The notes beneath the pieces were generated by a model. The model was not told the DNA's origin, did no database searches, and saw only the letters and a list, made by a program, of their open reading frames with translations. Shown piece by piece: positions 58,320-64,000 of a stretch of 64,000 bases of DNA. The stretch's first letter is position 1. Every line of letters begins with the position of its first letter. The stretch lies in NCBI RefSeq assembly GCF_016026235.1, contig NZ_CP065613.1; one strand, given 5' to 3'. The translations under genes and the position numbers were made by a program. The DNA is from Escherichia coli. GTDB taxonomy: Bacteria > Pseudomonadota > Gammaproteobacteria > Enterobacterales > Enterobacteriaceae.

Positions 58320-58560
58320 TGGTTACCAGAATCAGGGCAGTCTTAGGAGTGGCGGCATATAGCCAAAATAACGTGAGCGGGTCCATGCCCGACAGAATCG
58401 TTACTCTCTCCCATCCGGACTCTAACCGTCGGCCCCGGAATTACACCGGATCTGCTGTCCTTTGAGTTCGCACCCAAAGCGCTCGCGGGCTTTCAACTGA
58501 GTTGATTTACCGCCGGTGGGGAATTTCGCCCCGCCCTGAGAATAAGCGGATTCACTATAA
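58320..58560 (-). promoter_or_regulatory. FMN riboswitch (RFN element) in the ribB leader
   Basis: long structured 5' leader; minus-strand sequence contains ggggccgacggttagagtccggatgggagag, matching conserved RFN core segments; boundaries approximate. Confidence 0.6.
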
Positions 58561-61789: not shown

Positions 61790-61974
61790 ATTTTCAGCTA
61801 TGAACATCCCTGGCCCAAAAAGCCGAGGATTTTTTATATCTGCGTTCCGATAAAAAGTGCAAATGATCGGGCTGTTGCAGCATTTTGCGTGACCGCTCGG
61901 GGAAGGCAAAACTACCTCAGGGAAAGCGTTGCGCGGGGTCCGGCGCTCATCAACAATCGGGGAGTCAGCAAGGG

Positions 61975-62114
61975 GCTGAAACGGGAAAGCCCCTCCCGAA
62001 GAAGGGGCCTTGTATAAGGAAAGGGTTATGATGAAGCTCGTCATCATACTGATTGTGTTGTTACTCGTAAGTTTCGCAGCTTATTAACAGCCAATCAGAG
62101 GGGGGAGAAATCCT
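61975..62114 (-). ncRNA. sibD: SibD antitoxin sRNA body (antisense to ibsD), separated from its promoter by the IS insertion
   Basis: sequence homologous to the intact second copy; boundaries inferred. Confidence 0.4.
62028..62087 (+). CDS. ibsD: type I toxin peptide Ibs (19 aa, MMKLVIILIVLLLVSFAAY)
   Basis: direct translation; hydrophobic 19-mer. Confidence 0.8.
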   Translation: MMKLVIILIVLLLVSFAAY

Positions 62115-63407
62115 CTGAGGGATCCCCAGAAAATTTAGTAAACCATTATCATATTGGTATACCGTTGCTGTAGAACTTTCAGCCCTGCGTCAAATGACAG
62201 TGTGTTTAGTATGAGTGGAGAATGTCGAATCACATTCTCCGCCAGTTTTAATAACGAGATGACTCGCCTGTGCTTCACTGTATTTGCCTGATATTTATGA
62301 TGTATCCCTTTGTTTTCCAGGCTGAAACCGCTTAACCACATAATGATACTGGCTAATGTTGCGATCAGACTCAATACCGTGACCCGCCCGGATGAATGAC
62401 TGGCACCAAACCGTAGTCCAAATCCCCAGCGAGGATTTTTTTCATCCCTGAAATTTTGCTCAATTTGCATTCTACGGCTGTATAATTTCATTACCTGTTT
62501 TGGCGAGAACTCAGTACTGTTTGTGAAAATAAACCATGGTGATTTCCCGGCAGTACGAGCTTTAGCCGTCACCGATGGTCTGGTTGCTCTTTCCTTCGAG
62601 CGTTTAAATCTACGACCTTTAGGCTTACTTTTATAAAGATAAAAATGCCCTTCATGTTGTGCATTTTTATCTCGACCCAGCAGGCCTTCACCTAAATAAA
62701 TTGCTGTCGTTGATGCTTTTGTGCCTGAGTCCGACACCTTTTCCCAGCCATTACCAACATTGTAATAATGATTGCCCAGTACCCGGCAAATATAGGTCCA
62801 GCCACGGGAGCGGAGCTGTTGGAACCATCGCCCCTGAAAACCGGCATCTGTAATAACAATGACATCAGTCCCGGGGGAAAAGCACTCAGCAAGCGATTCC
62901 AGAAAACGCTCATGTACATCTGCATTCGCTGTCTGTGATGATGGAACGACACAACTCATCAACGGTAAAGAACGCCCGTCACATGCCAGGCTTGCCCGCA
63001 AAAGCTGAAAACGAGAGGCATGATAAGCACTCCAGTCAATGAGTATCACAACACGAGACATTCCCGCGTAATCTTTTGGGTAATTCGCTGAAAAATGGTG
63101 GAAACCTCATTTTGCAAATGTCGATTCCCCAACAGTCGATCCACCCGCTTTATTTTGTTTTTAACTGATGCCGTACCGGTTAAATGACGCCCGATACTGG
63201 TAAGTGTGAGGGAAGCGCCATTTATTACAGCATTAGTTGCGTCAATCAGTGATTTTTGACGGTAAAGATGCAAAGGGGCCAGTATATTGTTAAGGAAATT
63301 TTGGCATAATGAACGTGCAGGCATAGTGGTGATCTCCTTGAAATTGTTAGCACAATCAATTAGATCACATCTCACTATGCCTGTCTTGTTTTCTGGGGAT
63401 TCCTCAG
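62115..63407 (-). mobile_element. IS4-family, IS10-like insertion sequence (1293 bp)
   Basis: 19-bp imperfect terminal inverted repeats ctgagggatccccagaaaa / ctgaggaatccccagaaaa; flanked by direct repeats gagaaatcct (9-10 bp target-site duplication) that are single-copy in the second ibs/sib repeat. Confidence 0.8.
62135..63324 (-). CDS. IS10-like DDE transposase, encoded in two overlapping frames (possible frameshift near 63046-63061)
   Basis: N-terminal part (MPARSLCQ...NRHLQNE) and C-terminal part (VILIDWS...LYSRRMQIEQNFRDEK) both align by eye to IS10 transposase; reading frame changes between ITRE and SRVVIL. Confidence 0.7.
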
Positions 63408-63436
63408 GAGAAATCCTCCCTTACCCTTGTTCCTTT

Positions 63437-63465
63437 ACTTTAGGTTGAAAAAAAATCAGCGTCAA
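63437..63465 (-). promoter_or_regulatory. predicted sibD promoter (TTGACG-17 bp-TAAAGT), now directed into the IS right end
   Basis: hexamers read on the minus strand; equivalent TTGACG-17-TAGAGT at 63813-63841 in the second copy. Confidence 0.45.
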
Positions 63466-63654
63466 GAAGGTTTCATTAACACATATCCCTAGCCCAAAAA
63501 GCCGGGGATTTTTTATATCTGCGTTCCGCTAAAAGGTGCAAATGCTCAGGACGTTGCAGCGTTTTGCGTGACCGCTCGGGGAAGGCAAAACTGCTTCAGG
63601 GAAAGCGTTGCGCGGGGTCCGGCGCTCATCAACAATCGGGGAGTCAGCAAGGGG

Positions 63655-63805
63655 CTGAAACGGGAAAGCCCCTCCCGAGGAAGGGGCCTTATAGAAGGAA
63701 AGGGTTATGATGAAGCTCGTCATCATACTGGTTGTGTTGTTACTGTTAAGTTTCCCGACTTACTAACAACTGATCAGAGGGGGGAGAAATCCTCCCTTAC
63801 CCTTG
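63655..63805 (-). ncRNA. sibE: SibE antitoxin sRNA (antisense to ibsE)
   Basis: predicted promoter at 63813-63841 and a hairpin plus U-rich tract near 63655-63690 on the minus strand; boundaries approximate. Confidence 0.45.
63707..63766 (+). CDS. ibsE: type I toxin peptide Ibs (19 aa, MMKLVIILVVLLLLSFPTY)
   Basis: direct translation. Confidence 0.8.
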   Translation: MMKLVIILVVLLLLSFPTY

Positions 63806-63885
63806 TTCCTTTACTCTAGGTTGAAAAAACAACAGCGTCAATAGGCCTGCCATGTACGAAGCGAGATCTGTGAACCGCTTTCCGG

Positions 63886-64000
63886 TTAGCCTTTTTTATC
63901 CTGTTGGATCTTCTTGATAATGTTAGTGGTCGAGCAACCGTCTTCAAAGTTGAGCACCAACACTTCGCCGCCGTTGGCCCAGACTTCTTTACTCCCGGCG
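63886..64000 (-). CDS. hldE: 3' end (partial, runs off window) of bifunctional heptose kinase/adenylyltransferase
   Basis: minus-strand translation ends ...[28 protein letters not shown]-stop. Confidence 0.7.

Follow-up and report, generated by a model that had tools for sequence, protein, structure and literature searches.

The sibD antitoxin gene of the Escherichia coli analysed here is interrupted by a copy of the insertion sequence ISEc60, and we regard this as an ordinary, recent, target-site-driven insertion (at a probability of about 0.7) and not as an evolved coupling between a transposase and an antitoxin promoter. The window (the whole stretch of DNA that was analysed, 64,000 nt) carries the same locus, yqiK-sibD/ibsD-sibE/ibsE-hldE, as described for the Ibs/Sib repeats of E. 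coli (Fozo et al. 2008; Han et al. 2010). Compared with K-12, the IbsD peptide and the promoters are the same, whereas the promoter and body of SibD lie 1293 bp of IS apart. A sequence-only reading of this DNA had proposed that sibD promoter, transposase and antitoxin are linked by read-through; the span given for that link, 62028-63766, opens at the start codon of ibsD, closes at the ibsE stop codon and does not coincide with feature limits. The features of the locus are these (window positions, strand in brackets):

61929-61957 (+), putative ibsD promoter, -35 TTGCGC at 61929-61934, 17-nt spacer, -10 AACAAT at 61952-61957, read from the sequence
61984-62114 (-), promoterless SibD body, +14 to the 3' end, 131 nt, from alignment to K-12 sibD and Rfam SIB_RNA (81.7 bits)
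62028-62087 (+), ibsD toxin ORF, MMKLVIILIVLLLVSFAAY, translation that of K-12 IbsD
62105-62114 (no strand), left copy of the target-site duplication, GAGAAATCCT, present once in the empty site of strain FDAARGOS_943
62115-63407 (-), ISEc60, inside end 62115, outside end 63407, from identity to annotated copies, inverted repeats, NF033591 and DDE_Tnp_1
63408-63417 (no strand), right copy of the target-site duplication, GAGAAATCCT, likewise single in FDAARGOS_943
63408-63465 (-), orphan sibD promoter and first 23 nt of SibD, start from the K-12 ncRNA annotation, promoter by scan
63692-63841 (-), sibE, an intact, uninterrupted paralogue with its own promoter, ibsE lying opposite at 63707-63766 (+), from Rfam SIB_RNA (140.9 bits) and alignment

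The element is an IS10-like member of the IS4 family, 1293 bp in length, with its transposase frame on the minus strand. It is 99.8% identical over 1294 alignment columns to annotated 1294-bp copies of ISEc60, from which it differs by two substitutions and one deletion; RefSeq labels such copies 'IS4-like element ISEc60 family transposase'. Imperfect terminal inverted repeats occupy 62115-62133 and 63389-63407, and the 10-bp target duplication is present on both sides. The transposase scores 360.5 bits against the NCBIfam model NF033591 transpos_IS4_2 (cutoff 152), and Pfam DDE_Tnp_1 is recorded on an identical transposase protein.

The recent date of the insertion is apparent from FDAARGOS_943, a near-isogenic strain that is 100.0% identical over window positions 36000-60500 (24.5 kb). 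Because this near-identical strain has an empty sibD site, the insertion must be very recent. When the IS and one copy of the duplication are removed from the window, 3695 of 3697 bases match FDAARGOS_943, and neither of the two flank differences falls in the ibsD promoter, UTR or ORF. The lineage carries about 33 active-looking copies of ISEc60.

The sibD promoter (-35 TTGACG at 63465-63460, 17-nt spacer, -10 TAAAGT at 63442-63437) does not differ from the promoter of sibD in K-12. The annotated K-12 5' end maps to 63430, so that the element lies 23 nt downstream of the transcription start and begins at what would be SibD +24. An intact promoter that points the same way as the transposase and lies just 23 nt from the end of the element must send its transcription into the IS, as had been proposed. 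The window thus holds no contiguous sibD gene of ~145 nt, SibD nucleotides +1 to +23 being parted from +14 to +144 by the 1293-bp IS. Rfam matches the SibD body at 62013-62152 (81.7 bits) and the orphan promoter and leader at 63289-63465 (29.5 bits). Covariance-model annotation still calls the split sibD 'full-length' because IS sequence aligns to the 5' part of the model, an annotation pitfall in which a split gene is reported as complete.

What remains of SibD downstream of the element matches K-12 SibD from +14 to about +110, with TRD1 inside this region. Beyond ~+110 there are four differences: three are substitutions in the TRD2 equivalent, and the fourth is the loss of 1 nt from the terminator stem. 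The TRD2 substitutions also occur in uninterrupted alleles of other E. coli and are complementary to the local ibsD. The body therefore holds equivalents of both TRD1 and TRD2 together with a terminator hairpin (about 62009-61984), and in its predicted fold the central hairpins and the terminator are retained. For the paralogue SibC, Han et al. (2010, PMC2943612) showed that repression does not need nucleotides 1-29, that SibC(30-141) has full activity and that TRD1 is enough by itself. The SibD remnant keeps every part that experiment has found to be needed for repression and would, in principle, be sufficient.

The ibsD ORF is intact and encodes a small hydrophobic peptide identical to K-12 IbsD, its promoter motifs are the same as in other E. 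coli and in the empty-site strain, and the predicted transcription start near 61964 agrees in position with the 163-nt ibsD mRNA reported by Han et al. (2010, PMC2943612). Compensatory inactivation of ibsD was ruled out: promoter, Shine-Dalgarno (SD) sequence and ORF are untouched, with no change relative to the empty-site strain. Cross-protection of ibsD by SibE is unlikely, as the TRD1 regions of the two RNAs differ and a non-cognate Sib RNA reportedly gives no protection (Han et al. 2010, PMC2943612). An intact ibsD, taken with this lack of cross-protection, mildly favours some residual supply of antisense RNA.

The sibD promoter had been described as lying directly upstream of a co-stranded transposase gene. 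The layout is as described; the gene is not intact, its frame being broken as follows:

62135-63061 (-), C-terminal transposase ORF, 308 codons, with the DDE domain, severed from the N-terminus, from alignment
63046-63324 (-), N-terminal transposase remnant, 92 codons, ATG at 63324-63322, SD AAGGAG at 63339-63334
63063-63065 (-), frameshift site at codon 88, G4 of intact copies reduced to G3, from alignment with the copies in sibE (L001) and sibB (L002)

A 1-bp deletion in the G4 run (CCC on the plus strand) splits the 396-codon frame into ORFs of 92 codons (63324-63046) and 308 codons (63061-62135), and no full-length transposase is therefore possible from the window copy. This deletion is absent from all 92 ISEc60 copies in the 14 complete E. 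coli genomes that carry the element, and a search for proteins identical to the 308-aa ORF product yielded no record. The deletion falls within a homopolymer run, and a sequencing error might account for it. Programmed frameshifting was considered and dropped, as every other copy has a single 396-codon frame.

Quite apart from the frameshift, the outside end of ISEc60 carries what is predicted to be a control region of the IS10 type:

63302-63310 (+), candidate extended -10, TGGCATAAT, for an RNA-OUT-like RNA, a sequence motif
63317-63387 (+), RNA-OUT-like antisense hairpin with a U-rich tract after it, predicted fold -40.6 kcal/mol, z = -5.6
63318-63383 (-), fold-back hairpin, from a perfect 11-nt inverted repeat (I15), predicted fold and covariation
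63359-63387 (-), predicted transposase promoter (pIN-like), AAGACA at 63387-63382, 17-nt spacer, TCTAAT at 63364-63359, read from the sequence by analogy with IS10

The outer stem of the fold-back hairpin pairs IS nucleotides 25-35 (63383-63373) with nucleotides 80-90 (63328-63318, including the AUG), and the inner stem pairs nucleotides 40-46 (63368-63362) with nucleotides 73-79 (63335-63329, overlapping the SD). In read-through RNA the hairpin alone is predicted at -33.7 kcal/mol and buries the ribosome-binding site and AUG of the transposase; the minimum free energy of the fold-back region is -47.2 kcal/mol (z = -5.1). The computed probability that the AUG is unpaired is 0.00 in read-through RNA versus 0.36-0.54 in RNA from the element's own predicted promoter. 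The hairpin is kept in eight ISSfl1-type relatives, with AU, UA and CG at one position and GC replaced by AU at the next, a covariation signal of two informative pairs in eight sequences. Taken as a whole, the predicted structure of the read-through RNA matches the 'fold-back inhibition' of IS10. Fold-back is a known device by which IS10 is protected from external promoters. Davis, Simons and Kleckner reportedly found, in 1985, that external transcription barely raises IS10 transposase and is of no help to the end that is crossed.

The likeness to IS10 extends further. The ISEc60 transposase is homologous to that of IS10/Tn10, with 36% identity over 93% of its length, and in the predicted folds of both IS10A and ISEc60 a segment near the terminus is paired to the start-codon region, but only if the RNA was initiated outside the element (control region: Simons et al. 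1983; Davis, Simons and Kleckner 1985). The terminal repeats of ISEc60 begin, as in IS10, with CTGA..AATCCCC; IS10A has a GATC at nt 67, and in ISEc60 a GATC Dam site likewise overlaps the -10 of the predicted inward promoter, AGACA and GATCT being invariant in relatives. The opposite strand would also yield a hairpin RNA of ~70 nt, as in IS10. Control of the IS10 type further involves a Dam-sensitive pIN and start sites of pIN and pOUT that give an overlap of about 35 nt; the corresponding motifs in ISEc60 are AAGACA-17-TCTAAT with its GATC and, on the other strand, TGGCATAAT. There are differences, however. The module lies ~23 nt nearer the end than in IS10 (AUG at nt 84 versus 107-108), and the Rfam RNA-OUT model (RF00240) does not reach its threshold, scoring 16.8 bits (E = 6.3) versus a gathering score of 41, in an alignment that is full-length and on the expected strand (63317-63387). 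ISEc60 makes a 10-bp duplication at a GGGANNTC(C/T)C target whilst IS10 makes one of 9 bp at NGCTNAGCN. Because of this 10-bp duplication and a consensus flanked by G and C, the element is, on its sequence, best classed as a relative of IS10 and not as an isoform.

If the sibD promoter has little purchase on the transposase, might its transcripts nonetheless reach the SibD body? The sequence-only reading had named a strong terminator inside the IS as evidence that would count against it; we found no strong or convincing intrinsic terminator on the transposase-sense strand of the element, only weak terminator-like hairpins. The transposase-sense RNA does contain a C-rich, G-poor stretch at 63350-63230, and from this composition Rho-dependent termination of the untranslated read-through RNA is likely. 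Of the suggestion that read-through could still deliver antisense RNA to ibsD, the part that concerns the SibD remnant, with its TRD1 and TRD2, and the lack of a convincing intrinsic terminator stands; some RNA may yet cross the 1.3 kb of untranslated sequence, and with no strong intrinsic terminator in its way even substantial read-through is conceivable. A second potential source of such RNA lies at the inside end of the element:

62145-62174 (-), weak candidate outward promoter, TCTACA, 18-nt spacer, GATAAT, from a consensus scan (9/12 matches)

Transcription from the start predicted for it, near 62138, would produce a chimeric, SibD-like RNA of 155 nt in whose fold the central hairpins and terminator persist. 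Comparable arrangements are known for IS10. In otsBA (PMC2744996) and cat (PMC4574204) an IS10 lies between promoter and gene (at +12/+13 in otsBA, versus +23 in sibD), and downstream expression depends, as it would in sibD, on IS-borne or read-through transcription. Those insertions were selected, with pOUT always facing the gene, whereas it is the inside end of ISEc60 that faces the SibD body.

The following sequence of events would account for these features. Transcription from the K-12-identical sibD promoter runs into the outside end of the IS, and the hairpin hiding the SD and AUG of the transposase would form in the read-through RNA because such transcripts include IS nucleotides 1-55; RNA from the element's own weak promoter would start within the hairpin loop and so stay open. 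The window copy can yield no full-length transposase in any case, given the break at codon 88. Read-through would then produce ~1.2 kb of untranslated RNA, C-rich and G-poor near its start and hence a good Rho substrate, and probably only a minority of polymerases would reach the sibD body. RNA that did so, or that began at the weak outward candidate, would hold both recognition domains and could repress ibsD. The net effect would be that SibD is lost or strongly reduced, and that this is tolerated without a compensating change in ibsD.

It is in this light that the alternatives have to be judged. Coupling in full, with read-through from the sibD promoter both driving the transposase and delivering functional SibD antisense, so that transposition is tied to an antitoxin promoter, we consider highly unlikely. 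The promoter is adjacent and co-oriented, no strong intrinsic terminator is found on that strand, and three of the four independent sib insertions share this orientation. The fourth is inverted, however, so that the orientation is not required, and the proposed link to transposase expression is unsupported because the AUG, with its SD, is sequestered in read-through RNA by a conserved hairpin and the ORF is broken at codon 88; in IS10, moreover, external transcription is said to have little effect on transposase. Nor do we give much credence to an error of assembly or sequencing as the origin of the IS at sibD or of the frameshift, which seems just as improbable. The closest complete genome lacks the insertion and the 1-bp homopolymer deletion is unique among the 92 copies, both of which might be expected of an artefact, but the 10-bp duplication is clean, fits the target consensus and marks the very nucleotide at which three further insertions arose independently; a duplication is not something that mis-assembly would generate, and the lineage has about 33 active-looking copies.

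Tentatively, only the antitoxin half of the proposal might hold, the transposase being silent whilst enough minus-strand RNA covers the SibD body to repress ibsD and explain viability. Its sources could be sibD read-through, the element's own promoter or the outward candidate (62174-62145). Both recognition domains are kept, the activity of SibC(30-141) suggests that the lost 5' end is expendable, ibsD, compared with its counterpart in the empty-site strain, shows no compensating mutation whilst non-cognate Sibs are not protective, the chimeric RNA retains its hairpins and terminator with an Rfam score across the junction that is above threshold, and the promoter-like site at the inside end recalls IS10, for which outward promoters at both ends have been reported (PMC4574204). 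Against this, the candidate promoter matches at only 9/12 positions with an 18-nt spacer, such matches are common in the scanned region (8 observed versus 3.3 expected), a long RNA that is not translated is an easy prey for Rho, and an inverted, IS66-interrupted sibB insertion is tolerated with ibsB intact, suggesting that loss of a Sib may be survivable. Less likely again is that the toxin has been disarmed too, with ibsD transcripts running into the IS antisense to the 3' end of the transposase gene, where they would be destabilised or poorly translated and SibD would become dispensable. A start at ~61964 and an mRNA of 163 nt put the ibsD 3' end ~13 nt past the insertion point, just after the hairpin, and the next terminator-like hairpin on the plus strand (62215-62242) is inside the IS; the ORF, SD and promoter of ibsD are, however, untouched.

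An ordinary insertion directed by its target, the reading we prefer, is consistent with where ISEc60 is found elsewhere. The element landed in the loop of a GC-rich hairpin, GGGAGGAUUUCUCCCC. This hairpin forms the 5' stem-loop of SibD and, read from the opposite strand, acts as terminator for the ibsD mRNA. ISEc60 prefers hairpin loops of the form G|GGGANNTC(C/T)C|C: at 13 junctions there is always a G before the duplication and CC at its end, and in the 64-kb window this motif occurs at the sib sites only. Independent insertions at the same position are found in sibE (L001), in sibB co-oriented (L002) and in sibB inverted (L032/L033), the inverted copy, that of FDAARGOS_943, being itself interrupted by an IS66 and leaving ibsB intact. 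That the same sibB site is occupied in the inverted sense shows that orientation is not obligatory. Orientation bias was rejected as evidence of selection (3 to 1, with both orientations seen at sibB and at hok hairpins), as was gene conversion from a sibE::IS allele, both window flanks being of the D type and the IS copies differing. A mild sequence asymmetry of the target could itself set orientation.

Among 5426 complete E. coli genomes, ISEc60 is present in just 14. A junction search of these 5426 genomes did not find the sibD::ISEc60 allele and matched only the sibE junction of one EIEC lineage, and a synthetic query for the opposite-orientation sibD/E junction found none, exposing instead the inverted sibB insertion in FDAARGOS_943. 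A YqiK look-up returned uninterrupted loci only, and when metagenomes were scanned for the element's outside end two contigs came up, in neither of which it lies in a sib gene. ISEc60 has also inserted at two hok loci (L005, L012), in terminator hairpins 22-24 nt after the hok stop codons. Pedersen and Gerdes, in 1999, are said to have described IS elements beside hok/sok type I loci on the K-12 chromosome. The K-12 cases involve other elements (IS150, IS186) and toxin expression there is thought to be inactivated, whereas in the window it is the antitoxin promoter that has been uncoupled. 'Sequence insertions' at such loci have been noted in a review (PMC4147584).

A more far-reaching reading, which we think decidedly doubtful, is that ISEc60 may seek out terminal hairpins in type I toxin-antitoxin loci, its insertions surviving by virtue of antisense RNA supplied by the element in either orientation. 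Such homing may embrace both the Sib 5' stem-loop (that is, the ibs terminator) and the hok terminators. The replacement antisense may come, in the window orientation, from sibD-promoter read-through or an inside-end promoter and, in the inverted sibB case, from a strong pOUT-like promoter aimed into the sib body. As a further part of this doubtful reading, abundant sibD-promoter RNA carrying the RNA-IN target region could possibly titrate the RNA-OUT-like RNA of the ~33 other copies and so loosen multicopy inhibition.

For the IS family, these results extend the fold-back logic of IS10 to a barely studied relative, and a scenario in which an IS is captured by a strong promoter is defused by the design of the element. 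The window strain and FDAARGOS_943 form a natural pair in which to ask whether a cognate Sib is needed when ibs is intact. The 5' hairpin of Sib RNAs is a recurrent target of ISEc60, with four independent insertions across sibB, sibD and sibE, and such recurrent targeting bears on the copy-number decay of type I toxin-antitoxin repeats.

The yqiK–hldE intergenic region (window 61790-63900), whose K-12 counterpart holds the tandem type I units sibD/ibsD and sibE/ibsE, carries an intact sibE and two SIB_RNA pieces separated by an inserted element:

62013-62152, minus strand: SIB_RNA piece spanning the element junction (Rfam, 81.7 bits)
62115-63407: inserted element of 1293 bp with imperfect terminal inverted repeats, between the two SIB_RNA pieces
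62174-62145: candidate outward promoter near the inside end (TCTACA-18-GATAAT, a weak match)
63289-63465: second SIB_RNA piece (Rfam, 29.5 bits)
63465-63437, minus strand: sibD promoter, TTGACG-17-TAAAGT, every base as in K-12
63692-63841: intact sibE (Rfam, 140.9 bits)

The element is flanked by a 10-bp direct duplication, GAGAAATCCT, and is 99.8% identical to RefSeq-annotated copies of ISEc60 (IS4 family). The intact ISEc60 transposase (396 amino acids) matches NCBIfam transpos_IS4_2 (360 bits) and Pfam DDE_Tnp_1, and shares 36% identity with the IS10A/ISVsa5 transposase across 93% of its length. Rfam rates the junction-spanning piece as full-length (81.7 bits, threshold 56) even though its first ~38 positions are IS sequence, and automatic annotation would report an intact sibD there. 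Elsewhere in the window, an FMN riboswitch (58399-58547, minus strand; RF00050, 120.9 bits) upstream of a ribB-like gene is as expected for that locus.

The sequence-only reading had proposed that the sibD promoter drives the transposase and, beyond it, could still supply antitoxin RNA. Its geometry holds: the transposase frame shares the minus strand with sibD and lies below a K-12-identical promoter. The sibD 5' end annotated in K-12 maps to 63430, which places the first IS nucleotide at SibD +24. The transposase ATG, at 63324, follows the sibD start by 106 nt.

Two features, a predicted fold-back hairpin and a frameshift, contradict a link between transposase expression and this promoter, and together they remove it. 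IS nt 25-35 can pair with nt 80-90 as a perfect 11-nt inverted repeat whose second arm contains the ATG (84-86), and an inner stem (nt 40-46 with 73-79) overlaps the Shine–Dalgarno sequence. RNA starting at 63430 has a predicted minimum free energy of -47.2 kcal/mol (z = -5.1); the hairpin alone accounts for -33.7 kcal/mol, with a predicted probability of 0.00 that the AUG is unpaired. RNA starting at IS nt 50-58, a start predicted from a conserved AAGACA-17-TCTAAT motif with a GATC overlapping its -10, would have little structure and an AUG accessibility of 0.36-0.54. The hairpin is kept in eight relatives, down to ~69% DNA identity (ISSfl1 and plasmid remnants), and covaries among them at one pair (AU/UA/CG) and an adjoining one (GC to AU). 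A similar fold is predicted for IS10A (arm 51-63 with 100-112, AUG at 107, GATC at 67). IS10 reportedly escapes activation by external promoters through fold-back inhibition, which we take the predicted ISEc60 start-codon hairpin to represent; transcription crossing an IS10 end also reduces the activity of that same end. The complementary strand is predicted to form an RNA-OUT-like hairpin (-40.6 kcal/mol, z = -5.6) but, at 16.8 bits against a gathering score of 41, it misses the Rfam RNA-OUT threshold despite a full-length alignment at 63317-63387. ISEc60 would thus work like IS10, with an antisense RNA unrecognisable as a member of that Rfam family.

That the transposase frame is broken escaped the sequence-only reading. 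Where intact copies read GGGG (IS nt 340-343), this copy reads GGG, which leaves an N-terminal ORF of 92 codons and, apart from it, one of 308 codons. ISEc60 occurs in only 14 of 5426 complete E. coli genomes, and the 92 copies found there all read GGGG; the deletion is therefore either private to this copy or a homopolymer sequencing error. The 308-codon ORF (62135-63061, minus strand) starts at an internal ATG and retains the DDE domain without the N-terminal 88 residues; its predicted product recalls the Tn5 inhibitor protein, likewise N-terminally truncated.

Could transcription nevertheless reach the sibD body? Terminator-like hairpins on the transposase-sense strand number only two, both weak (stems of 5 bp, poor T tracts), and an energy-based scan found no convincing terminator on it; the strong internal terminator that would have counted against read-through is thus not seen. 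We infer substantial Rho-dependent termination, however, because the RNA would be essentially untranslated and contains a C-rich, G-poor stretch at 63350-63230 (C/G about 2). For the candidate outward promoter, the only precedent is that IS10 is reported to carry such promoters at both ends (PMC4574204).

The SibD remnant (+14 to +144) matches K-12 SibD through about +110, including TRD1; 3' of this, the TRD2-equivalent segment carries three substitutions and the terminator stem has lost 1 nt. The TRD2-segment changes also occur in other E. coli whose alleles are uninterrupted, and they preserve complementarity with the local ibsD. SibC tolerates the loss of nt 1-29, TRD1 (nt 46-68) is enough for repression, and non-cognate Sib RNAs do not repress (Han et al. 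2010, PMC2943612). A chimeric RNA starting in the IS is predicted to keep the central hairpins and terminator. With TRD1 kept, TRD2 complementary and this fold retained, antisense function is plausible if the remnant is transcribed; the antisense half of the coupling is therefore possible, but unproven and rather doubtful.

An effect absent from the earlier proposal concerns the toxin mRNA. The ibsD promoter motifs (TTGCGC, 61929-34; AACAAT, 61952-57), 5' UTR, Shine–Dalgarno sequence and ORF all show no change relative to the empty-site strain FDAARGOS_943. The target hairpin doubles as the ibsD terminator: from a start near 61964 and a reported length of 163 nt, the mRNA would end about 13 nt beyond the insertion point. 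Because the insertion lies in this hairpin, ibsD transcripts must enter the IS, and loss of the terminator may alter toxin expression. A terminator-like hairpin at 62215-62242 (plus strand; 11-bp stem followed by CAGTTTTAAT), antisense to the transposase 3' end, is the first plausible stop they would meet.

Within a lineage that carries ~33 ISEc60 copies, the sibD insertion is polymorphic at the level of strains. Window 36000-60500 is 100.0% identical to the near-isogenic FDAARGOS_943, in which the sibD site is empty; with the IS and one duplication copy removed, 2/3697 bases differ (61826 and 63491). Both differences fall within the repeated hairpin CCCTGGCCCAAAAAGCCGGGGATTTTTT preceding each ibs unit; the D copy differs in its 3' arm, the E copy in its 5' arm. 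Some E. coli with identical YqiK have a single ibs/sib unit between yqiK and hldE (L017; L021, 5401-5460), a pattern that fits loss of one unit through recombination between the D and E repeats, which are 92% identical.

The placement of ISEc60 in sibD is explained by target preference, and its orientation is not obligatory. Across 13 junctions the 10-bp duplication has the consensus GGGANNTC(C/T)C, with G before it and C after it in every case, and most sites are loops of GC-rich hairpins, several of them obvious terminators; across all 64 kb of the window, matches to G[AG]GGANNTC[CT]CC are confined to the sib hairpins. Independent insertions occupy the same nucleotide position, in the loop of the Sib 5' hairpin at about +23, in sibE of EIEC CFSAN029787, RMDEC364 and VL46 (L001, 2888-4181), in sibB of RMDEC332 (co-oriented; L002, 2634-3927) and in sibB of FDAARGOS_943 (inverted, the copy later split by IS66; L032, 2521-3064, and L033, 5945-9950), with the ibs ORFs intact at all three. 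ISEc60 also lies 22-24 nt past hok-family stop codons, in GC-rich terminator hairpins, once in each orientation (L005, 1747-4515, with two copies in tandem; L012, 1918-3387). Type I toxin–antitoxin loci seem over-represented among the targets because their terminal hairpins suit the GGGANNTCCC preference. The IS ends, CTGAGG[G/A]ATCCCCAG (62115-62133 and 63389-63407), hold a GGGGATCCCC-like palindrome that is also present in the preferred target, G GGGANNTCCC C (compared with 62099-62116), and read-through RNA would therefore form an extra hairpin between the SibD leader and the IS terminus. The shared palindrome may reflect one DNA-recognition specificity of the transposase.

In sum, sibD is an antitoxin RNA gene split by an ordinary, recent IS insertion; of use beyond this case are the repeated choice of Sib and hok hairpins as ISEc60 targets and the existence of a near-isogenic strain with the site empty.
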